In this document: positions 2,909 to 14,588 of the stretch, one piece after another | How positions within the stretch are numbered: position 1 is the first letter of the stretch | Layout: each line of letters begins with the position of its first letter | NCBI GenBank assembly: GCA_004524535.1 | Contig: SDNY01000084.1 | Location: 1 to 15,853, forward strand | DNA: 15,853 nt | DNA from: Promethearchaeota archaeon | Lineage (GTDB): Archaea; Asgardarchaeota; Lokiarchaeia; Sigyniarchaeales; SOKP01 | Direction: 5' to 3' | Notes under the pieces: generated by a model | What the model saw: the letters and a program-made list of their open reading frames with translations, nothing else | What the model was told of the DNA's origin: nothing | Databases searched by the model: none | Position numbers and translations under genes: made by a program

Positions 2909-3511
2909 TTAACATTTTAAAAGCGTGAGTATACTTATATCAATTTTCCAAGCCCCTATAGCAAAGAAAACTATCCATTCTACAATCGACCACCTAACGA
3001 TAATATAAAAAACAATTAAAGTGGCAGTAAAAAATCCATAATATGCATGGATCTTAGAAAAATTATTTTCTCTTAAAATTATTAAACTAAAGAAGATAAG
3101 AGATAAACATTCACTTACAAAATATACACCAGCTAAACTGGCATGAATTACACCTATTACTAAATTAATAACTGGGAAAAATGCTATCATTGATAAAGCT
3201 ATACACCCTATTACAGATAATTTAACAGCTCGTCTAGTTAATTTCTCATTTTCTTCTCTTAAAATCCGTCCAAGAAAGATATAAAATGGAATGGAAAACA
3301 TACCCATAAGAATTAGGCTAATAAAAAAAAATAATGGTGCTAACCCAGGTCCTATTCCCAGAACACTCACATCATTATTTATCATGTCATACCTTGGAAA
3401 ATTTAGGTATGAAAGAAAAATAAATATTGCACCTAGAGAAACTGACAATAATCCATAGGCCCCTCCGGGTATCTTCAAGAGTTTATCTACAAAATTATTT
3501 ATTTTTTCAAT
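2909..3511 (-). CDS. DUF998-like multi-pass membrane protein, paralogue 2; proposed ATT start at 3511 (ORF track start TTG3478)
   Basis: YDMINNDVSVLG, hydrophobic helices, a conserved His and a C-terminal EW, all shared with the neighbour. Similarity to the neighbour extends upstream of TTG3478: (I)EKINNFVDKLL vs MEIQKKIFDKLL. Confidence 0.7.
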   Translation of the reverse strand: MEKINNFVDKLLKIPGGAYGLLSVSLGAIFIFLSYLNFPRYDMINNDVSVLGIGPGLAPLFFFISLILMGMFSIPFYIFLGRILREENEKLTRRAVKLSVIGCIALSMIAFFPVINLVIGVIHASLAGVYFVSECLSLIFFSLIILRENNFSKIHAYYGFFTATLIVFYIIVRWSIVEWIVFFAIGAWKIDISILTLLKC

Positions 3512-3553
3512 GATATTTTCACTATTTTTTAATAATTTTATAAGAAAATTAGC

Positions 3554-4186
3554 TTAAAGTTTATGATAAATCAAATAAATAGAATTTGCAATTATCCATG
3601 ATATTATGGCAAATGTAGCAATCCATTCAGTAATAGGCAACCATGTAAATAAAATTAGTAGGTATGTTCCAGCAACAATGAATCCCTGGCAAGCGATGAA
3701 TTTTGAATATTTGCCCCCGTTAATGGTAGATCCCATTAACATTAGAATACTAAATGATATTAAATAAAATACTCCAGTTAGAAAAGATAAAAAAGCAAAA
3801 ATTCCATGGGTAACAAAAATAATGTAATTATCTTCAATTGAGGGAAAAATACCAACCAAGATATAAGTAATAATGGAAATTAACGAAAATATAAGAGAGC
3901 TTTTTCTCACGAGTGGATTTACAGTTTCTTTATCAAAAGATCTATAAAGGGCGATATAATACGGAAAACTTAAGATGCCCGAAATTATTAATCCAAGATT
4001 AAAAAATATTCCGGAAGATCCATGGCCTAGTTCGGAGATCATATTTTCAAAAAAATTATAACCTTCTGGAAATAATATCATTGAAATAATATCTCCAGTT
4101 AATACGATAGCACAAGTTAAAAGTCCAAAAATACCTCCAGGGATTAAACTGAGAAGCTTATCAAAAATTTTTTTTTGTATCTCCAT
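3554..4186 (-). CDS. DUF998-like multi-pass membrane protein, paralogue 1
   Basis: YNFFENMISELG...FFNLGLIISG, VGIFP, THGIFA and ITEW motifs; about 6 TM segments. Confidence 0.75.
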   Translation of the reverse strand: MEIQKKIFDKLLSLIPGGIFGLLTCAIVLTGDIISMILFPEGYNFFENMISELGHGSSGIFFNLGLIISGILSFPYYIALYRSFDKETVNPLVRKSSLIFSLISIITYILVGIFPSIEDNYIIFVTHGIFAFLSFLTGVFYLISFSILMLMGSTINGGKYSKFIACQGFIVAGTYLLILFTWLPITEWIATFAIISWIIANSIYLIYHKL

Positions 4187-4212
4187 ATCTATTTGATTTA
4201 GCCAACAATTTT

Positions 4213-5358
4213 TTAATATATTGTAAATCGATGTCTCGCTTGCTCTTGACTTCTAAGGGTTTTCTTTCGGATTTCTTTATCGATTAGCCCTTCAATATGG
4301 CATAAATACTCATATTCATCTTTTATAACTAATGTTATTGCTGTCCCTTTTTTTCTCATTCTCGATGTCCGCCCAATTCTGTGAACATAATTTTCAGGGA
4401 ATTTAGGAATATCATAATTAAAAACATGAGAAATATTCTCTATGTCTAAACCCCGAGCAGCAACATCAGTAGCAATAAGCATATTTATCTTTCGTTCCCT
4501 AAATTCTTTTAAGATTTTTTCTCTCTGAAATTGTGTCAATTTTCCAGAAATTAATCCCATTTTAAAACCAATATTTTTTGATTTTAACCTATTATACAAC
4601 CAACTTCCTGTTTTTTTCGTATTTACAAATACAAGAACACGTTTTGGCTTCTCTACTCTTAAAATCTCTAGAAAACTTTTAAATTTCTGCTCATATCGGT
4701 CAATCATATAATAATATTGTCGAGTACTCTTTACAGTTAAATCATCTCTACTTAAATTTAGAAATTGAAATTTATTTCCAGAGTATTTTTTAACTAAGTT
4801 TCTAATATCATAATCTAAAGTTGCTGAAAATAACATAAATAGATAATTAGTTTTAATTTGATTTAAGATATATTTAACATCTGGTGCGAAGCCCATATCC
4901 CATAATCTGTCTGCTTCGTCTAATACAACAAAATTAATATTATTAAATTTTAGTTTCCTTCTCTTCCATAGATCTATAAGCCTTCCGGGTGTTCCTACAA
5001 TAATATGAACTCCTTGTTCTAATTTATTAATTTGATTGTTAATTGAAACTCCCCCATAAATAGTCATGGACTTAATGTTATTATTTCCTAAATCTTTAAC
5101 AACTTGATTAACCTGTTTCGCAAGTTCTCTAGTGGGAACGATAATTAGAGCTTCATTATTTTTATTTGTTAATTTCTCAATAATTGGAATGATAAAGGCC
5201 AATGTTTTGCCTGTACCTGTCTTAGCTTGAGCCATAACATTTTGTCCCTTTAAAATAAGCGGAATTGCTTTTTCTTGTACAGGGGTAGGATTTATTATCC
5301 CGAGTTTCTTTAAAGCGTTAATATTTTTAGCGCTTATACCTAAATCGTCGAAATTCAA
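4213..5358 (-). CDS. DEAD-box ATP-dependent RNA helicase (core only)
   Basis: Q motif PTPVQ, Walker A AKTGTGKT, PTRELA, GTPGR, DEAD, SAT, TDVAARGLD and HRIGRTSR. TTG start lies 7 nt after a GTGA SD-like motif (5369-5366). Confidence 0.96.
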   Translation of the reverse strand: MNFDDLGISAKNINALKKLGIINPTPVQEKAIPLILKGQNVMAQAKTGTGKTLAFIIPIIEKLTNKNNEALIIVPTRELAKQVNQVVKDLGNNNIKSMTIYGGVSINNQINKLEQGVHIIVGTPGRLIDLWKRRKLKFNNINFVVLDEADRLWDMGFAPDVKYILNQIKTNYLFMLFSATLDYDIRNLVKKYSGNKFQFLNLSRDDLTVKSTRQYYYMIDRYEQKFKSFLEILRVEKPKRVLVFVNTKKTGSWLYNRLKSKNIGFKMGLISGKLTQFQREKILKEFRERKINMLIATDVAARGLDIENISHVFNYDIPKFPENYVHRIGRTSRMRKKGTAITLVIKDEYEYLCHIEGLIDKEIRKKTLRSQEQARHRFTIY

Positions 5359-5587
5359 AATAAAGTCACAAGTATATTTCCTTTTTTAACTCACTATTTT
5401 CATATATTAAAACGCAGTAAGCTAATTAAATTTTAGTGTTATTATTTAAAATTTTATTATTCCCTTTTCAGCATTACGACGATAATCAATTTGATGTAAA
5501 AATTTTGGAAATCTTTTTACGCAATCTTTCCTTATTCTTTTGTAAATATTAGAAAAGTTTTCAAACATTTCAGAAAGAGTGAAAAAA

Positions 5588-5938
5588 ATGAGACCTAAAA
5601 TAAAATTTTATTTATCATTAGCTGTATTACAAATATTTTTAATTTTCATTGTTCTTTTCAGTATAAATGGATTAGTTACATTTGTAGCAGCCCAAGGCGA
5701 AGGTGCAGTTAGTAATCCTGCGACTGCTTCGATGGTAGCAATCTCAGCAGCGATAGCAGTAGGCGCCTCTACATTTTCAAGTGCTTGGGCCTTAAAAACA
5801 GTTGGGACTGCGGCAATCTCTTCTATAACGGAACGTGAAGGAGGGTCAATCGTGATACAGTTTTTAAGTATAGCAATGTGCGAAGCTTTAGCTATTTATG
5901 GATTTATAGTTGCTGTACTGCTATGGACTCTCATTTAG
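5588..5938 (+). CDS. atpK: A/V-type ATPase proteolipid subunit K (c), single hairpin plus N-terminal hydrophobic segment
   Basis: Small-residue-rich helix (AISAAIAVGAS...VGTAAIS) and C-terminal helix IAMCEALAIYGFIVAVLL with the ion-binding Glu (GAA 5882-5884). ATG5588 follows GAGTGA; GTG5579 is an alternative start. Confidence 0.93.
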   Translation: MRPKIKFYLSLAVLQIFLIFIVLFSINGLVTFVAAQGEGAVSNPATASMVAISAAIAVGASTFSSAWALKTVGTAAISSITEREGGSIVIQFLSIAMCEALAIYGFIVAVLLWTLI

Positions 5939-5946
5939 AACACCCA

Positions 5947-5962
5947 TTTTTTTTAAAAAAAA
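5947..5962 (+). terminator. T8A8 palindrome / oligo-T tract after atpK, putative intra-operon terminator
   Basis: TTTTTTTTAAAAAAAA begins 8 nt after the atpK stop. Archaeal intrinsic termination uses oligo-U tracts. Confidence 0.45.
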
Positions 5963-5981
5963 GAATTTTGGTGAATCATTA

Positions 5982-7031
5982 ACGAGTGTAGTCGTCCCTT
6001 CATATTCTTATACTTACATAAAATTAGAATTTTTAAAGCAATTAATAATGGATGATGATGTTCTAAAAAGAGTTAGACTTATAAATGAAATTAAAGAACT
6101 TGTCGATTATATTCGTCCTTATTATCCAAAGATAAAAATTGAAGCATATTCAATTGAAGAAATTGAGAAAGCATTATACCACACTTTTATAAAATTAATT
6201 GGAAAAATTCTCTATTATTCACCATCGAATATGAGACGATTTTTAAGAGATTACCTTTTACAATTTGAGATAATGAATATTAAACAAATTATTCTTGGTA
6301 CAATCGTTGGTATGACTCGAAAAGAAAAATCTAAGGAAGTTAATTTTTTAGTTGAAAGATTGCTTGGAAATGTGGAATTTATAAATAGTTTGATTGACGC
6401 CAATACGTTAGATGAAATTCAATTATTAATGAAAAATACCAGGTACTATAAGGCCGTTAGAGAGGGTATACTTTATTTCAGAAACTATAATGAGGTGTTC
6501 GTATTAGAGTCTTTTTTAGATCAATTATATTATCAGAACCTGATAAAAGAGGAAAAAAGCTTTAACAGAACAGAAAAAAAAATTTTAAATCTCTATATAG
6601 ATTGTATAACTGAAGTTTATAACTTGAATATAATATATAGAAGCCTATTAAATAACATTGACAAGAAACTTGTATCACAGTTTTTAGTAGATAATTATTT
6701 ATTTTTTAATAAAAATGAAATTGGCAATTTAGTACAAATAAATGATATTAATGATTTTATTACAATAATAGTTGAGAGATATAAAGAAATTGATATGCTT
6801 AAGAAGTTCATATCTGAAATAGGTGTCCATAAAGAACATCTATATTGGTGGATTGAAGGATTGTATATTAATTATATTTTTAATAAACTAATACCAAAAA
6901 TAGACAACATTGATTATTCAACAATTTTAGGGATTATAAAAATGATAATTGGGAAACAAAAAGAAATTCAATTTGATATATTACCAAATGTGGTAAAAGT
7001 TATTCATAGGAAATTTGATCTTTTAGAATAA
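5982..7031 (+). CDS. atpC: A/V-type ATPase subunit C (d-like); proposed ACG start at 5982 (ORF track start TTG5910)
   Basis: About 350 aa, helical, operon position. YSYTYIKL N-terminus, YLLQFEIMNIKQII, LESFLDQLYY and EVYNLNIIYR match subunit C patterns. GGTGA (5970-5974) lies 7 nt before ACG. Confidence 0.88.
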   Translation, partial: TSVVVPSYSYTYIKLEFLKQLIMDDDVLKRVRLINEIKELVDYIRPYYPKIKIEAYSIEEIEKALYHTFIKLIGKILYYSPSNMRRFLRDYLLQFEIMNIKQIILGTIVGMTRKEKSKEVNFLVERLLGNVEFINSLIDANTLDEIQLLMKNTRYYKAVREGILYFRNYNEVFVLESFLDQLYYQNLIKEEKSFNRTEKKILNLYIDCITEVYNLNIIYRSLLNNIDKKLVSQFLVDNYLFFNKNEIGNLVQINDINDFITIIVERYKEIDMLKKFISEIGVHKEHLYWWIEGLYINYIFNKLIPKIDNIDYSTILGIIKMIIGKQKEIQFDILPNVVKVIHRKFDLLE

Positions 7032-7045
7032 GGGGTGAATTGATA

Positions 7046-7357
7046 ATGGAAATTTTTAAATGGACAAATGAAATAGAGAAAGTCTATGACGATCTAATTA
7101 CTAATGCTAGAGAAGAAAGTCTTGCTGAAATCAAAGCTTTAAGAAATAATCAAGAAAAAATGAAGGAATTCACACTTAATCAAAAGCAAAATATTGTAAA
7201 TTTAGCATTAAAAGAATTATCAGAAAAAGTTGAGAAAGAGATCACAAGTTTCAAAAACGATTTGAATCAAAAAATCAAAACTATTGAAGACCAGTTTCAA
7301 ATGAGTAAAAATAAAATAATTAAATCTATAACTAAGAAATTAGGATTTGAATTTTAA
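7046..7357 (+). CDS. atpH: A/V-type ATPase peripheral stalk subunit H (G-like)
   Basis: About 103 aa charged coiled coil (EIEKVYDDLITNAREE) inside the operon. ATG7046 lies 7 nt after GGGGTGA (7032-7038); ORF track start is TTG7040. Assignment rests on size, composition and context. Confidence 0.72.
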   Translation: MEIFKWTNEIEKVYDDLITNAREESLAEIKALRNNQEKMKEFTLNQKQNIVNLALKELSEKVEKEITSFKNDLNQKIKTIEDQFQMSKNKIIKSITKKLGFEF

Positions 7358-7689
7358 TGCCAGATCAAGAAATTTATGTTATAGGATATGATGAGATTGT
7401 TCTTCTTCTGGGACTCCTCGGGATTCAGGGCATGGTCCTTGAGAAATCTGACGACTTCATGAAAATCTTTAAAGAACTCATAAATAACCCTTCCATTGGA
7501 ATGATTATTATAGCATTAGATTTACCTTCTGATATTATTGATTATTTGATAAATTTTAAATTAAATAATCGAAGACCTTTTATCTTTTATTTACCAGATA
7601 TTTTCCAAGTAAATATAGAGAAAAACAATGTTTTCTTGAATAAAATTAGTAAAACAATTAGTAAAATTATACAACAAGAAGTTGATTAG
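7357..7689 (+). CDS. atpF: A/V-type ATPase subunit F
   Basis: IYVIGYDEIVLLLGLLGI and IGMIII...PFIFYLP match subunit F; 110 aa; TAATG overlap with the upstream gene. Confidence 0.9.
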   Translation: MPDQEIYVIGYDEIVLLLGLLGIQGMVLEKSDDFMKIFKELINNPSIGMIIIALDLPSDIIDYLINFKLNNRRPFIFYLPDIFQVNIEKNNVFLNKISKTISKIIQQEVD

Positions 7690-8413
7690 AATTTCGGAAG
7701 AAAAAGATTTAAAAGAAAGATTTGGAAATCTAGGATTATATCTAGTTGAAAAAGCTAAAAAAGAAATTAATGAAATTAATCGTCAAACTCTTTTTCAAAA
7801 AGCAGAAATTAGAAAAAGTTATATTGACAGATCTAATGAATCTTCTTTAAGAATCCGCAACCATTTTATTGAGACTTATAAGCAATTTTTAAATAGCAAA
7901 TTATCAAAAACCCTCCTTGATTCAAAAGAAGAAGTCTTAAAGATTAAAAACCAGCTCGTTGAAGAATTGAAAAATTTTATAAAAAATTATTTGAAAGAAA
8001 AAATTGAAGGTAGCTATTCAAATTATATAAATTTCATAATTGAAAAAATTAAAGAAAATAAGAATTTTATTGATAAACCCCCTAAAATTATTATTTTATT
8101 TAATTCTAAAGATTTTAATTATTTTAATGAAAATCCTAATAAATTAAAAAATCTCTTCAAGAATGATATAGAATTTAAAAAAGATCCTCATCAATCAATA
8201 GGTGGATTTAAAGTAATATTAGCCCATGGAGACATTTCTTTTAATTATTCGGTGGATGATATAATAAATGAAAATTTATCTATTATTCAACAAGAATTTT
8301 CAAATATAATTAGTGATTCTGAAATAAAAGAAATTGAAATCAATTTTGAAAATTTTATTCAAAACCAAAAACAAGGCATTAAGCAATATTTGGAAAACTA
8401 TGACAGAATCTAA
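7682..8413 (+). CDS. atpE: A/V-type ATPase peripheral stalk subunit E
   Basis: N-terminal coiled coil, then IIILFNSKD and SIGGFKVI...ISFNYSVD typical of the subunit E head; lies between F and A; extended C-terminus. Confidence 0.87.
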   Translation: MIRISEEKDLKERFGNLGLYLVEKAKKEINEINRQTLFQKAEIRKSYIDRSNESSLRIRNHFIETYKQFLNSKLSKTLLDSKEEVLKIKNQLVEELKNFIKNYLKEKIEGSYSNYINFIIEKIKENKNFIDKPPKIIILFNSKDFNYFNENPNKLKNLFKNDIEFKKDPHQSIGGFKVILAHGDISFNYSVDDIINENLSIIQQEFSNIISDSEIKEIEINFENFIQNQKQGIKQYLENYDRI

Positions 8414-10235
8414 GGATAAGAATTATGGGTATATTGCAGGAATAAGTGGATCTCTGATAACTGTGAAAGGATTAGAGAATGAAATACGGCTTAATGACTT
8501 AATTAAAGTCACAAATCACAATATTATAGGGCAAGTAATTCAAATCTATTCAGATTATATTATAGCACAATGTTTTGAAAACACCAATAATTTAAAACTA
8601 AGAGAGAAGGTTGAAAGTCTTTTTGAACCTTTATCTATGGAGTTAGCTCCAGGATTATTATCTAATATCTTTGATGGGATTCAAAGACCCTTAAAAGCTG
8701 CATTTGAAGATATTGAAAGCGAAGGTTTTTTAGAGAGAGGTTTAACTTTAAAATCTTTATCTCAAACAAATAAGTGGCATTTAGTTCCTAAAAGAAATCT
8801 TAATGAAAAAGTTAGCGGAGGAGATATTATAGGCACTGTGCAAGAAACTCCTTTAATCGAACATAGAATAATGGTACCCTTAGGAATTACTGGAGAATTA
8901 ACTTATATTGCCGAAGAGGGAGAATACACTATTCAGGATGAAATATACAGAGTTAAACAGGATAATATTGAAAAATCTTTTAATATGATTCAGCGTTGGC
9001 CAATTACTAAAAATAGACCATATATTAAAAGAATGATCCCTAAAGAACCATTAATTACAGGAATTCGTGTGATTGATTTATTGTTTCCTGTAGCAAAAGG
9101 AGGTACTGTTGCTGTTCCTGGGGGATTCGGATCTGGAAAAACTGTAACTCAACAATCGCTGGCAAAATGGTCTAATGCAGATGTTATTGTATATATTGGT
9201 TGTGGTGAGCGAGGAAATGAAATTGCCGATGTTTTAAAACAGTTCTCTGAAATAATAGATCCAAAAAGTGGTAGACCCTTATTAGAGCGTATTGTTCTTA
9301 TTGCAAATACTTCAAATATGCCAGTCTCTGCTCGTGGGGCAAGCATCTTTTCAGGTGTCACTATTGCTGAATATTATAGAGATATGGGTTATGATGTTGC
9401 TGTCCTAGCGGATAGCACCTCGAGATATGCGGAATCACTAAGAGAAATATCTGGTCTCTTGGAAGAAATGCCAGCAGAAGAAGGATATCCCGCATATCTG
9501 CCTTCTAGGCTCTCTAATTTTTATGAAAGAGCTGGCATAGTAAAGACATTTGGAAATGATACATCTAGCAATGTAAAAATTGGCTCATTAACAATTATTG
9601 GATCAGTATCCCCCCCTTCAGGAGATTTTAGTGAACCAGTAACATCAACGACTAGACGATTTGTCCAAGCATTCTGGGCCTTAGATGCGAATTTGGCATA
9701 TTCTAAACACTATCCTGCAATAAATTGGCTTGATTCTTATTCAAACTATCCCGAATATATCTCAGATTGGTGGTTTGAACAAGATATTAATTGGCCAGAG
9801 ATAAATATAGATTGGGAGGAATGCAGAGAACAAATAAATGAAATTTTATCAAAAGAGAATGATCTCAAAAATGTCGTACAATTAATAGGAGAAGAAAACC
9901 TCCCTGAGGATCAACAATTAATATTATTTATAGCAAGATTAATTCGTGAGGGCTTTCTGATTCAAAATGCTTTTGACAATATCGATAATTTTACTGATGT
10001 TAAAAAACTGTTAGGACAAGCAAAAATAATTCTTTTATTATATAAATTGGGCAAAGATTTATTAAAAAACGGTTTTATTGTTGAGGATATTAAAGATTTA
10101 GAAGTTGTAAATAATATATTAAGAATAAGTCAATCGATTGAAAATAATGAGTTTTACAAAATTGAAAAAATAAAAGATAATGTTCTAAGTGAAATTGAAT
10201 CATTAAAACTAAGATTAGGAGGAGTAAAAAGTTAA
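8400..10235 (+). CDS. atpA: A/V-type ATPase catalytic subunit A
   Basis: [19 protein letters not shown]-loop GGFGSGKT (9120-9143), [37 protein letters not shown] and HYPAINW. ATG8400 overlaps the atpE end and is preferred to TTG8334. Confidence 0.98.
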
Positions 10236-10236
10236 A

Positions 10237-11628
10237 ATGAGTATAACTTATAAAAAAATTCAAGAAATTGTTGGACCACTAATATTTCTAAAAAATCAAC
10301 ATGACGTACAATATGGAGAAATCGTAAAAATACATTCTGAAAGTGGAAAAATTCGCACAGGTCAAGTTGTTAAATTGAGTGAAGAATCAATTGTTGTAGA
10401 AGTTTTTGAAGATACAACTGGTATATCTTCTAGAAATTCTGAGATATTATTTACAAAAGATAGTTTTAGGGTAAAAATTTCAAATGATATGTTAGGTCGA
10501 ACATTCAATTCATTAGGTCAATCAATTGATATTAAAACTAGGAAAATTATTGATTCGGAAATTTTAAGTTATACTGAAAGAGATATTAATGGCAAACCAA
10601 TAAATCCATTTGCAAGGGAATATCCCTCAGATGTAATTCAAACTGGAATATCTGTAATGGATGCCTTATTTACATTAATCAGAGGTCAAAAACTCCCTAT
10701 TTTTAGTGGACAGGGTTTACCTCATAATAAACTTGCAGCTCAAATAGTTACTCAAGCAAAAGTTTTGACTGGAGAATCTTTCTTAATAATTTTCTGTGGT
10801 ATTGGAATACTTCAAGATGAGGCAATTTACTTTTTAGACAGATTTAAAGAGAGTGGAAATATTCAGAATATCATTTCCTTTATTAATTTTTCAGATGATC
10901 CAATAATGGAAAGATTAATCGTGCCAAGAATAGCATTAACGACAGCGGAATATTTCGCATTTGAAAAAGGTATGCATGTACTTGTAATTTTAATTAATAT
11001 GACTAATTATGCTGAAGCATTAAGAGAATTGAGTGCGGCTAAAGAAGAGGTTCCAAGTAGGAAAGGATATCCGGGTTACTTATACTCTGATTTAGCCTCA
11101 TTATATGAGAGAACCGGTAAAATTAAAGGTAAGGAAGGTTCTATAACCCAAATTCCTATATTGACTATGCCAAATGATGATATCTCTCATCCAATTCCTG
11201 ATACGACGGGTTATATCACAGAAGGTCAGATTGTTTTGAATCGTAACTTATATAAACGGGGTATCTATCCGCCTTTTGAAGTCTTATCTTCTATCTCCAG
11301 ATTAATGAAAGATTCAATAGGTAAAATAACAACAAGAGAAGATCATGCTGATTTGAGTTCACAATTATTAGCATCATATTCAAAAGCTCTTGAGGTTCGG
11401 GATTTAATCTCAATAGTGGGAGAAGATGGGTTAAATATGGACCAGAAAGTCCTCTTAAAATTCGGTGAATCTTTTGAAAATAAATTTATGAATCAAGGAA
11501 CATCTGAAACTAGAGATTTTAATCAGACATTCAACATTGTATGGGATATTTTATCCAATTTACCGTCTAAATTGTTATTTAGAATTCATCAAAAATTTAT
11601 AGATAAATATTTTAATGGAGTATTATAA
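10237..11628 (+). CDS. atpB: A/V-type ATPase subunit B
   Basis: [60 protein letters not shown] and arginine-finger SRLMKD. Confidence 0.98.
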
Positions 11629-11645
11629 AAAGGTGAAAATATAAA

Positions 11646-12281
11646 ATCAGCTTTAAGAAAATTAAGCCTACGAGAACCAATTTGATGGAATTGCAGAGAA
11701 AAATGATCTTTGCCCAAAGAGGTAAAGAATTTCTTGAATTTAGAAGAGAACAGATAATCAAATTAATCAATGAATATTGGAAAAAGTATCATCTACAACA
11801 AAAAGGTTTTTTCTCTCTGTTTAAAAAACTAATGCTTTTACTAAACGAAACATATAAAGAAATGGGGAAAAAGAATTTTAACATCATAAGTAGCATAAGT
11901 AAAATTCGCCTTGAACCAAAATTTATTTTAAAATATGTAAAGAAGGCAGGTATAATAATTCCCCATATCGAATATGAATTAATACAAGAAAGACACCTTC
12001 CTGCATATAGTTTTGAAATATCTTCGCATTATCTTGATGATTTAATTGTTTTATTGAAAAAATTTATTGAACAGATTATGCGAACAGCAGAAGTTGAAGA
12101 TATTATGCTAAAATTTGCATTTAATTTTAAGAAAATTGATCGAAGAATTAACGCTCTTAAAAATATTATTATTCCAAATCTACAATCAGATATAAAAACT
12201 ATTAAAGATATTTTAGAAGAAATAGAAAGAGAAGAGTATGTTAGATTAAAAATAACTAAAGAAAAAATTCATTTAGGGTAA
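11646..12281 (+). CDS. atpD: A/V-type ATPase central stalk subunit D; proposed ATC start at 11646 (ORF track start TTG11682)
   Basis: Conserved N-terminal KPTR..L..L......A.RG starts upstream of TTG11682; C-terminal RRINALKNIIIP...ILEEIEREEYVRLK; AGGTGA at 11631-11636. Confidence 0.93.
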   Translation: MSFKKIKPTRTNLMELQRKMIFAQRGKEFLEFRREQIIKLINEYWKKYHLQQKGFFSLFKKLMLLLNETYKEMGKKNFNIISSISKIRLEPKFILKYVKKAGIIIPHIEYELIQERHLPAYSFEISSHYLDDLIVLLKKFIEQIMRTAEVEDIMLKFAFNFKKIDRRINALKNIIIPNLQSDIKTIKDILEEIEREEYVRLKITKEKIHLG

Positions 12282-12287
12282 AATTTC

Positions 12288-14588
12288 TTGACTGACAAAA
12301 CGCAAATGAGTTTGATAAAGGTTATCATTAAAAGTAATTATAAAAACCAACTTTTGAGACTACTCTCAAATTTAAATATTGTTCATATTAAATCAAAAAT
12401 GAAAAAGGATTTGAAGGTAATTGAAAAAGATCAACCTTTTGCTGAAAAATTAAAAAATTTAAGGCAATCCTTAGATACTTTATTTAAAAAACTTCGGATA
12501 AGTGAATCTGAAATCCAGGATTTAAGATTTGAAAGAGATGAAAGAATTGAATTTGTAGTAAAAGATTTACAAGAATTGTTAAGTCAAACATTAGAAGAAA
12601 TTAACTTTCTCTATAATCGAATTAATGAATTAGACAAATACATTGTTAGAGCCAAAATTGAATTAGAAAATCTGAATACAATTAAAAGTTGTTATTATTT
12701 TTTAGAAAAGTATAATTTAACTCGCGATAGTCCTATTAATTTTAATCAATTGGTTTTTAAAGTCTATACAACTTTTTCTAAAAATTTAATTAACTTAAAA
12801 ACTCTTTTTGAATTTACCCAATTTCCTAATGTGTATCAAACTTATCCTATCTCAGAAGATCGTATCACTTTTTATATTATTTATCCAAAGGACAGAGAAG
12901 ATGATTTTAGAGAAAGGATCAGTCTCATTCATGCTGAAGAAATACCCATATTAAAGAAATATCTTACTCAGGAAGGAATAAATTTCAATAGAATATCCAA
13001 AGAAATTGATATTATTAAGAATTCGCTATCAAAATATTTAAAGGAGCAAAAACGCATAAGAAATGATTTTCTTTTAAAATTTGCTGCAATACATGAAATT
13101 GTTCAAAATATTGAAGAATATTATTGGGCTTCAAAGCAATTTGAAGAATTACCGTCAGGTCGAGTGGTTCTTAAATTTTTTGTACCAAGCGGTAAAAAGC
13201 AGGAAGTTATTTCATATTTAAAAAAAAATCTAGAAACAAACATTATAATTGAATCGATTGATATCTCTAAAAAAAGAGTATTAAAGGAATCTGAAGAATT
13301 TAAAGAAAAATATAAAAAATTAGAAGCAAAATATCCATCAAAAACAGAAATATCTAATGAAAATGTTCAAGAGATAGAAGAATCAGATTATGAAAAAGAA
13401 GATTTAAGAAAAGAAACTCCTAGAGCTATGCATAATTTCTTTTTATTCAGACCATTTGAAACTTTAACAAAATTATACGGAAGACCATCATATTCGGAAG
13501 TCGATCCAACGCCAGTTTTATTTTTTACTTTTCCTTTATTATTTGGGTTAATGTTTGGAGACATAGGCCATGGTATTTGTTTAGTGATTGCAGGATTAAT
13601 AGGCGCCATTATTTTTAGAAAACGAAAAGGAAGTGATTTATATAATTTTTGTTGGATAATTTTTTGGTGTGGATGGGGCGCTATTTTAATAGGATTTTTT
13701 TATGGTGAATTCTTCGGAATGAATGAAATTTTAATTTTAGGAATTGAATTAAAACCCATTATTATTAAAATCCCTTATTTTGATATTAGTTTCACTCTCC
13801 ATAATCCTTTGGAGAATATTATAACCCTGTTTAAATTTGTAATTTTAATTGGTGTAATTCATATTAATTTAGGCTGGTTTATCCAATTTTTAAACTATTG
13901 GAAACAAAAATATAAGTATCTTGCTCTTTCAGATTCATTATGTAAAATTAGTTTATTAACTGGAGGAACTATTTTAATTTTTATATTTGGATTTGATATT
14001 AATGCTTGGTTTTCTTATCCTTACCCCATATTACTTGTTTTAATTCCCGGACTTTTGCTAATCTTCTTAAAGCCTTTAGGAAGAGTATTTAGCGTCTCAT
14101 ATTTGGAAAAGGATACTTTCGGGGAATTATTAGGGGAAGGTTCATTAGAAACTTTTGAGACGGCATTATCAATTTTGAGCAATGTCGCATCTTATGCAAG
14201 ATTATTAGCATTAGCATTAGCCCATATTGCATTGATGGTTTCAATTCAAGCCATAGTAGGGTTAATTCAAGGTGAGGGAATCGGTTTTCAAATTTTATTT
14301 ATAATTTGTTTAATATTTGGAAATCTGGTAGTTATTTTAATTGAAGGCGTAATGGTCTTTATTAATGCATTAAGACTTCACTTTTATGAGTTCTTTAATA
14401 AATTTTATCAAGGAACGGGTCTATTATTTTTTCCTTTCTTTTTAGATGATGATTATTCAATTATTACATTTAAAATTGAGGCAGAGAAAGATGTTATTTC
14501 CGAAGAAATTGAGAGAGAAATCGAAGCAAAAAAGGCAAAAGAGGAAATAGGCAAAGCTGTAAGCTTCCTCTCTGATAAATTCCTTTAA
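12288..14588 (+). CDS. atpI: A/V-type ATPase membrane subunit I (a)
   Basis: YGRPSYSEVDPT, FGLMFGDIGHG, GFFYGEFFG, essential Arg in SNVASYARLLAL (AGA 14199-14201) and LRLHFYEFFNKFYQG; TTG start. Confidence 0.97.
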   Translation: MTDKTQMSLIKVIIKSNYKNQLLRLLSNLNIVHIKSKMKKDLKVIEKDQPFAEKLKNLRQSLDTLFKKLRISESEIQDLRFERDERIEFVVKDLQELLSQTLEEINFLYNRINELDKYIVRAKIELENLNTIKSCYYFLEKYNLTRDSPINFNQLVFKVYTTFSKNLINLKTLFEFTQFPNVYQTYPISEDRITFYIIYPKDREDDFRERISLIHAEEIPILKKYLTQEGINFNRISKEIDIIKNSLSKYLKEQKRIRNDFLLKFAAIHEIVQNIEEYYWASKQFEELPSGRVVLKFFVPSGKKQEVISYLKKNLETNIIIESIDISKKRVLKESEEFKEKYKKLEAKYPSKTEISNENVQEIEESDYEKEDLRKETPRAMHNFFLFRPFETLTKLYGRPSYSEVDPTPVLFFTFPLLFGLMFGDIGHGICLVIAGLIGAIIFRKRKGSDLYNFCWIIFWCGWGAILIGFFYGEFFGMNEILILGIELKPIIIKIPYFDISFTLHNPLENIITLFKFVILIGVIHINLGWFIQFLNYWKQKYKYLALSDSLCKISLLTGGTILIFIFGFDINAWFSYPYPILLVLIPGLLLIFLKPLGRVFSVSYLEKDTFGELLGEGSLETFETALSILSNVASYARLLALALAHIALMVSIQAIVGLIQGEGIGFQILFIICLIFGNLVVILIEGVMVFINALRLHFYEFFNKFYQGTGLLFFPFFLDDDYSIITFKIEAEKDVISEEIEREIEAKKAKEEIGKAVSFLSDKFL

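Follow-up and report, generated by a model that had tools for sequence, protein, structure and literature searches.

Near-cognate codons very probably act as genuine translation starts throughout a Lokiarchaeota-type family of Asgard archaea, and they appear to be used at least occasionally in a sister family too. The main codons are ATT, ATA and ATC, with ACG and CTG rarer; they are conserved among orthologous genes, keep a narrow distance from a preceding Shine-Dalgarno (SD) motif and depend on the strength of that motif. The evidence begins with 15,853 nucleotides (nt) of DNA from Promethearchaeota archaeon (assembly GCA_004524535.1, contig SDNY01000084.1), hereafter the window, which is an entire contig (C4) of a genome of 3.66 Mb in 198 contigs with about 30% G+C, from a lineage that is described as close to eukaryotes. 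The window has, on its plus strand, the genes of an A/V-type ATP synthase as one operon (K-C-H-F-E-A-B-D-I) and, on its minus strand, a DEAD-box helicase and two paralogues of the DUF998 family. At three of these genes, namely atpC, atpD and DUF998 paralogue 2, the original prediction had placed the start of a conserved N-terminus at ACG, ATC and ATT, each just behind a GTGA motif, and had proposed that such SD-positioned starts are widespread in the lineage. The first proposal is backed by orthologue alignments at all three genes, and the second by a controlled scan of the genome. In the following, G000 denotes the window's genome, f1 the family to which it belongs, and f2 and f4 two further families within its order. 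The 3' end of the 16S rRNA of G000 is ...GGATCACCTCCT, and its UCACC pairs with GGTGA.

Start sites in the window and their orthologues

All three sites lie where they had been predicted. On the plus strand, atpC (A/V-ATPase subunit C, PF01992; 5982..7031) begins at ACG 5982-5984, 7 nt behind a GGTGA core (5970..5974) complementary to the 16S 3' end, and atpD (subunit D, PF01813; 11646..12281) begins at ATC 11646-11648, 9 nt behind a GGTGA core (11632..11636) whose TGA is an in-frame stop. On the minus strand, DUF998 paralogue 2 (PF06197; 2909..3511) begins at ATT 3511-3509, 7 nt behind an SD-like AGTGA (3523-3519) that is GGTGA in close relatives. The same spacing of 7 nt precedes the two canonical starts that had served to calibrate the geometry, ATG7046 of atpH (GGTGA; site at 7034..7048, plus strand) and TTG5358 of the helicase (TGTGA; site at 5356..5370, minus strand). 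Between the TGA of its motif and TTG11682 atpD has no ATG, GTG or TTG. In-frame canonical alternatives are present in the window for atpC (TTG5910), for DUF998 paralogue 2 (TTG3478, downstream of ATT3511) and for a further gene considered below, atpE (TTG7682, upstream of ATT7691).

For atpD, 40 relatives were searched and 29 loci with a visible N-terminus were read (one more is cut by a contig end), the start column being the codon that precedes the conserved Ser-Phe-(Lys/Arg)...Lys-Pro-Thr. Among the 20 f1 loci this column is near-cognate in 17 (ATT 9, ATA 4, ATC 3, ACG 1) and ATG in three; the nine loci of f2 and f4 have ATG (7) or TTG (2). Eight of the 17 near-cognate loci lack any canonical codon, as an in-frame stop lies 1-9 codons upstream, and in six further ones the sole in-frame GTG or TTG belongs to the SD-like GGTG itself. 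Residues 2-35 of the solved Thermus subunit D align to residues 5-38 of the ATC-started atpD in a Protein Data Bank alignment, and therefore a start at TTG11682 or ATG11685 would lose the conserved Lys-Pro-Thr-Arg segment.

The atpC column, located before Ser-(Val/Ile)-Ile-Val-Pro-Ser-Tyr and read at 30 loci, holds ACG at 16 of the 21 f1 loci (ATG 4, TTG 1), and ATG at eight of the nine f2 loci. Past the upstream stop, 12 of the 16 ACG loci have no in-frame canonical codon, and two read TAA ACG directly. The persistence of ACG, which is a single C-to-T change away from ATG, at 30% GC suggests that the weak atpC codon is retained by selection. A search of the Protein Data Bank gave no match to atpC at an E value of 0.001 or better. 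The ninth f2 locus (L054, genome G027) has ATT, 6 nt behind GGTGA and aligned with the ATG of the other f2 genes, and near-cognate starts are thus not confined to f1.

The strict conservation of ACG at atpC, in 16 of 16 non-canonical cases, is also what would be expected of a site at which RNA editing, for instance C-to-U at ACG, restores AUG, as is known from C-to-U editing at ACG in plant organelles. The codons ATT, ATC, ATA and CTG at other genes would each demand a different chemistry, and mRNA editing of such a kind is, to our knowledge and with no literature search aimed at it, not known in archaea. Editing is hence scarcely credible as the general explanation.

For DUF998 paralogue 2, ten loci were read. 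Four orthologues (L128-L131) have ATG at the column of ATT3511, and the two closest ones (L126, L127) have ATA behind GGTGA at this column and CTA at the position of TTG3478. As orthologues carry a start at the ATT3511 column and CTA replaces TTG3478, the eleven residues upstream of TTG3478 belong to the protein. In an independent sediment sample (run X2), window position 3523 is C on the plus strand, which turns the AGTGA of this gene into GGTGA, as in its closest relatives.

A fourth near-cognate start of the window was found at atpE (subunit E; 7691..8413, plus strand), for which the original prediction had given a TTG start. In 20 f1 loci the column of ATT7691 holds ATT in 15, ATC in one, ATG in two, TTG in one and another codon in one, and at nine loci an upstream stop excludes any canonical codon. 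Relatives have stops between the positions of TTG7682 and ATT7691, and two of them (L039, L050) have ATG at the ATT column. TTG7682 itself sits within the SD-like AAGTTGA, of which GTTGA (7681-7685) lies 5 nt before ATT7691. These alignments indicate that atpE probably starts at ATT7691 and not at TTG7682. The TTG start that had likewise been assigned to atpI stands: this gene (a/I subunit; 12288..14588, plus strand) begins at TTG12288, 6 nt behind GGGTAA.

Taken together, the f1 orthologue columns show that the operon holds three conserved weak starts, ACG in C, ATT in E, and ATT, ATA or ATC in D. The other genes mostly begin with ATG in f1: atpK (c/K subunit; ATG5588, 5 nt behind AGTGA; 5588..5938, plus strand) in 18 of 21 loci, with TTG in three; atpA (ATG8400; 8400..10235, plus strand) in 18 of 18; atpB (ATG10237; 10237..11628, plus strand) in 18 of 20, with one GTG and one TTG; atpF in 15 of 19; atpH in 12 of 15, with one TTG and two ATA; and atpI mostly at or near the column, with TTG in the window and one relative. 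It had been proposed that weak starts tune down single-copy subunits relative to multi-copy ones. This is plausible and partly consistent with the alignments: the stalk subunits C, D and E have near-cognate starts, and ATG persists in the high-copy A, B and K; E is present in about two copies, and F, H and I, being mostly ATG-started, fall outside the stoichiometric pattern. The type of start codon can switch between close genomes, as seen at atpH: the two loci with ATA (L033 of G008 and L034 of G002) have AGGTGA 6 nt before it, its TGA being in frame, and offer no canonical codon, where the window has ATG.

It might be held that the canonical codons (TTG5910 or ATG6048, TTG11682 or ATG11685, and TTG3478) are the real starts, the similarity upstream of them being untranslated or due to an assembly error or a decaying gene, and public gene calls indeed use exactly those codons. 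This is very improbable given that the upstream segments are present and vary synonymously, in frame, across about 20 genomes, that in relatives the corresponding places hold a stop or lack any canonical codon, that the fit to solved homologues and Pfam profiles depends on the residues upstream, and that the frame of the initiation factor aIF1 (see below) has no usable canonical codon. With respect to base errors, contigs of sequencing run X1, compared as Logan contigs at a word depth of about 52, show no difference from the window over 3300-12400, a match from a run that is possibly the source of the assembly and hence not independent. Base errors are ruled out more firmly because the codons are conserved across about 20 separately assembled genomes.

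If the near-cognate codons are taken as the starts, the public calls for the contig are too short or too long at these genes, which is the mis-annotation that had been anticipated. The call for atpD has 198 residues from ATG11685 and is 13 residues short, and those for atpC have 373 residues from TTG5910 (24 too long) or 327 from ATG6048 (22 too short); DUF998 paralogue 2 is called with 189 residues from TTG3478, and atpE with 257 or 243. A collection of 15 billion proteins contained no exact match to the near-cognate-started proteins, the ATC-started aIF1 among them, which is a weak negative as the first codon may be read there as Ile or Thr.

Near-cognate codons behind GGTGA across genomes

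Both strands of G000 were scanned for codons of any kind that lie 0-24 nt behind GGTGA and open a reading frame (ORF) of at least 100 codons, with an in-frame stop no more than 15 codons upstream and no canonical codon either from the stop to the site or within 5 codons downstream; canonical starts were counted behind the same motif. At spacings of 4-10 nt the canonical starts comprise ATG (62), TTG (19) and GTG (5), and the near-cognate ones ATT (18), ATA (13), CTG (3) and ATC (2), with no ACG. At spacings 6-7 ATT (16) and ATA (12) together exceed ATG (23), and at most other spacings the near-cognate counts are 0-3 (up to 4). Control codons show no peak at spacings 6-7 behind GGTGA, where AAA was seen once and AAT, TTA and TAT not at all; the near-cognate pattern thus exceeds chance.

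The near-cognate peak is sensitive to the motif. ATT and ATA make up 28 of the 63 starts at spacings 6-7 behind GGTGA, versus 23 of 160 behind five motifs with one mismatch (Fisher p = 5e-6), and ATG tolerates weaker SD motifs, with 42 cases behind AGTGA. Similarly, 28 of 31 near-cognate codons, versus 23 of 62 ATG codons, fall at spacings 6-7 (p = 6e-7). Weak codons thus accompany the strongest SD core and the tightest spacing.

The 36 listed near-cognate sites represent 35 distinct ORFs (one ORF has two sites), which encode unrelated proteins. When 34 of them were scanned against Pfam, 22 matched a family at an E value of 1e-5 or better, and none of these 22 contradicts the near-cognate start. 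In 12 of the 34 the first canonical codon lies downstream of the point at which the domain begins (profile positions 1-5), a group made up of HisA, FtsZ, four Ras/Rag-type GTPases, an AsnC-type helix-turn-helix protein, a POR subunit, Lactamase_B_3 (with a CTG start), DUF4240, Phosphodiest and YdjM. Two other readings of the motif were considered and rejected. Were TGA a sense codon, the frames would continue upstream, and only seven of the 35 sites reach a canonical codon before the next TAA or TAG; moreover, TGA ends 271 of 2206 long ORFs. The GTG inside GGTGA cannot be the true start at spacings 6-7, where it is out of frame. At two of the 35 sites the frame runs on upstream for 492 and 599 codons once the TGA of the SD motif is disregarded, and adjacent genes in the same frame or internal sites are possible there.

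In an operon, ribosomes that leave the upstream gene might resume at whatever codon the SD motif sets in the P site, so that what is seen would be coupling and not relaxed de novo initiation. The positions of atpC, atpD and atpE, which lie within the operon and 18-43 nt after or overlapping the previous gene, agree with such a post-termination restart, as do nine of the 35 genome-wide sites, where an upstream ORF ends no more than 30 nt away. Coupling within 30 nt is however rarer at near-cognate sites (9/35) than at canonical ones (37/86), at 22 of the 35 sites the 100 nt upstream contain no end of a same-strand ORF of 80 codons or more, and the aIF1 gene is preceded by 400 nt of stop-riddled sequence. 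Restart is accordingly a rather improbable source of these starts as a class.

The same scan was applied to parts of three further genomes. In 400 kb of G015, an f1 genome of another genus, four near-cognate sites stand beside four canonical ones, and in 400 kb of the f2 genome G031 three near-cognate beside nine canonical ones. At one of the G031 sites a PemK domain begins at residue 8, and the next canonical codon is 30 codons in. In 800 kb of G063, from another family of the phylum with a GC content of 31%, no ATT or ATA was found at spacings 6-7 against 38 canonical sites at spacings 4-10; the difference between G000 and G063 has a Fisher p of 1.7e-4, with 39 canonical sites once a single ATG at spacing 3 is included. 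As G063 is similarly AT-rich and shows no ATT/ATA peak, the near-cognate habit is not a by-product of AT-richness. In these samples near-cognate use is therefore strong in f1, present in f2 and unseen in the one outside genome. G063 has two CTG codons 6-7 nt behind GGTGA (L239:597 and L243:10165) and none at other spacings, which might represent CTG starts in a family that looks canonical in other respects; Pfam is uninformative on both.

The initiation factor aIF1, the initiator tRNA and a possible mechanism

The aIF1 protein (SUI1, PF01253), the archaeal homologue of eIF1, was found in 21 of 23 f1 and 10 of 11 f2 genomes; its absence from f1, which was considered, is thereby ruled out. In G000 the gene (G000:C174:10556-10882; locus L104:1417-1743) occupies a frame of 108 codons whose only canonical codons are TTG at 82 and 105. 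On its upstream side this frame is delimited by the TGA of AAGGTTGTGA, downstream of the stop-riddled 400 nt, and the gene begins at ATC, 9 nt behind the GTGA of this motif. From this ATC the protein is collinear with the 102-residue aIF1 of M. jannaschii. In 17 of 18 f1 genomes the start column, ATC/ATT-AAA-GA(C/A) three codons past the stop, holds ATT (14) or ATC (3), and 16 of the 18 have no canonical option. In f2 eight of ten genomes offer TTG, GTG or ATG and two only ATA, and both f4 genomes have ATG, as does G063.

Among 30 genomes of 12 other families, the aIF1 gene has a canonical start in 25 and none before the zinc knuckle in five, where ATA (three) or CTG (two) is found instead. 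These five Asgard loci come from three families; in L195, L198 and L199 ATA follows AGGAGG, and in L205 and L207 CTG lies 7 nt after AGGTG. From this distribution, a weak-start aIF1 may have arisen several times. The protein itself is distinctive in the order. At three positions, residues 43, 58 and 64 numbered from two residues before the zinc knuckle, the 28 sequences from f1 and f2 have Phe (28), Ala (28) and Ser (25; Ala in 3), versus Gly (30/30), Leu (30/30) and Cys (26) or Thr (4) in the 30 other Asgard genomes; basic loop 1 is kept.

One initiator-like tRNA was found in G000, with the anticodon CAT and three G:C pairs (GGG/CCC) in the stem; it was located with a short sequence motif, ARAGORN finding 9-12 tRNAs in all. 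Its gene (AGCGGGG..., CAT; G000:C174, minus strand near 17011) seems to be interrupted downstream of the anticodon stem. The ARAGORN count, in a genome that is 99% complete, suggests many intron-bearing or otherwise unusual tRNA genes.

These observations bear on the possibility that a modified C34 in the initiator tRNA, such as the 5-formylcytidine (f5C) that occurs at C34 in mitochondria, or a second initiator tRNA, reads AUA, AUU and AUC. An altered decoding agent of this type would fit the 31 of 36 genome-wide sites that differ from ATG at the third position only, and the tRNA census, at 9-12, is incomplete. On the other hand, the only initiator-like gene found has the ordinary CAT anticodon, and ACG (at atpC and one atpD) and CTG involve mismatches at the first or second position that a wobble modification leaves unexplained; tRNA modifications are in any case unreadable from DNA. 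We consider altered decoding unlikely.

Several points weigh against taking the near-cognate codons as genuine and family-wide starts. The canonical alternatives for atpC, DUF998 paralogue 2 and atpE in the window are excluded solely via relatives, and the compared genomes are kin, so that the counts represent far fewer independent events. The spacing of 9 nt at atpD and aIF1 lies beyond the genome-wide optimum of 6-7. In the scan, the stop filter favours spacings that are multiples of 3, as the TGA of the motif then supplies the stop, and this makes the excess of spacing 6 over spacing 7 (ATT 11 and 5, ATA 11 and 1) uninterpretable. Twelve of the 34 candidates have no Pfam family, and 10 have domains too far downstream to decide. 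The samples from G031 and G015 are small, and the negative control is a single genome. A search of sequencing runs listed none from RNA that contains the window.

If near-cognate initiation is genuine, it might proceed as follows. The small ribosomal subunit would be placed by pairing of the mRNA GGTGA with the UCACC of the 16S 3' end, so that the P site lands 6-7 nt downstream and the ordinary initiator tRNA with its CAU anticodon is tolerated on a codon with a single mismatch, the perfect SD core and narrow spacing offsetting the weak codon. Selection might keep weak codons for a low or adjustable output, for example of the stalk subunits C, D and E relative to the ATG-started A, B and K. 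The stringency of the process might be set by aIF1, whose ATC or ATT start behind an imperfect SD motif would be expected to limit its own synthesis, as in the cases of infC and eIF1 described below; such negative feedback would hold stringency low. By extension it is possible, if doubtful, that in this order stringency is low and adjustable through a self-throttling aIF1 with its three order-specific replacements, and that the dozens of conserved AUU, AUA and ACG starts (C, D, E, FtsZ and small GTPases among them) form a regulon that follows the level of aIF1. If true, this would make the aIF1 loop the archaeal equivalent of both infC autoregulation in bacteria and eIF1 control in eukaryotes.

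Relation to known systems and other features of the window

Archaea are taught as using AUG, GUG and UUG. These codons are the starts named in a review of archaeal initiation, in the available text of which a term search gives no AUU, and the sites described here share with the textbook scheme the SD-led, operon-internal initiation with aIF1, aIF1A and aIF2 (PMC7531240). Ribosome profiling in Haloferax gave about 30% near-cognate codons among putative alternative sites, which were set aside (PMC7261190). In Sulfolobus, aIF1 discriminates against AUU (PMC4705826). The closest precedent is a "rare ATT start codon" proposed for the AtubA tubulin gene in a metagenome-assembled genome of the Kariarchaeaceae (Lokiarchaeia), where, as here, an upstream ATT restores conserved sequence, in that case the first β-strand, and puts the ribosome-binding site at a plausible distance; it differs in being one "rare" case in a methods section, reported there apart from any genome-wide or comparative treatment (PMC13394414). 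A search of full-text literature, with subscription journals and supplements outside its scope, brought up neither a systematic account of starts at AUU, AUA or ACG in Asgard archaea nor a report of a near-cognate aIF1 start.

In principle, near-cognate initiation is already known. Bacterial infC, which encodes IF3, autoregulates through an AUU start, and eIF1 through a poor start context (PMC4705826; PMC6237735). Like aIF1 in f1, infC is a fidelity factor made from a conserved non-canonical start, AUU there and ATC or ATT here, and the predicted logic is the same, with a low level of the factor allowing more initiation on its own weak codon (PMC4705826). The two differ in that aIF1 is a homologue of eIF1/SUI1 with a fold unrelated to IF3, in that the feedback in the present case is a prediction, and in that weak codons occur here in dozens of ordinary genes. 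In eukaryotes a member of the same eIF1/aIF1 family polices the codon-anticodon pairing, ACG, AUU, AUA and CUG are usable as starts, and a weak site lets eIF1 restrain its own production (PMC4705826). Eukaryotic initiation depends on scanning and the Kozak context, whereas SD pairing at a fixed 6-7 nt would act here, and it favours CUG where the present sites are mostly third-position variants. The rare bacterial starts of NCBI translation table 11 (ATT, ATC, ATA and CTG) are the same codons behind SD motifs. In model bacteria such rare alternative starts are limited to a handful of genes, whereas in G000 they account for 28 of the 63 starts where the geometry behind GGTGA is optimal, and individual genes keep them across the family. 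What is new in the present case is hence that near-cognate initiation would be common, would be linked to SD strength, would persist at individual genes across genomes and would reach the fidelity factor itself.

Asgard proteomes rest on gene finders that accept only ATG, GTG and TTG, which leads to misplaced starts wherever near-cognate codons are used. The truncated N-termini can pass into structural and evolutionary work on the "eukaryotic signature" proteins of these archaea, the AtubA tubulin being an example (PMC13394414). G000 encodes many Ras-, Arf- and Rag-like GTPases, in keeping with its Asgard placement, and small GTPases account for four of the twelve near-cognate sites that have domain support. 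The rivalry of AUU and AUA with AUG at the best SD geometry would furthermore provide a natural system for the evolution of initiation stringency under SD guidance as opposed to scanning, and the production of the eIF1 homologue itself from a weak codon adds to that interest. Some Lokiarchaeia are in culture, so that experiments on the question should be feasible.

In the window, the genes K, C, F, E, A, B, D and I form one co-directional cluster recognised by Pfam profiles (PF00137, PF01992, PF01990, PF01991, PF00006 twice, PF01813 and PF01496), and the gene called atpH (7046-7357) within it has no Pfam match. The DUF998 genes occur as tandem arrays of two to four copies, both in the window (2909-4186, minus strand) and in relatives, and the family is much commoner in f1 (22 of 23 genomes) than in f2 (2 of 11).

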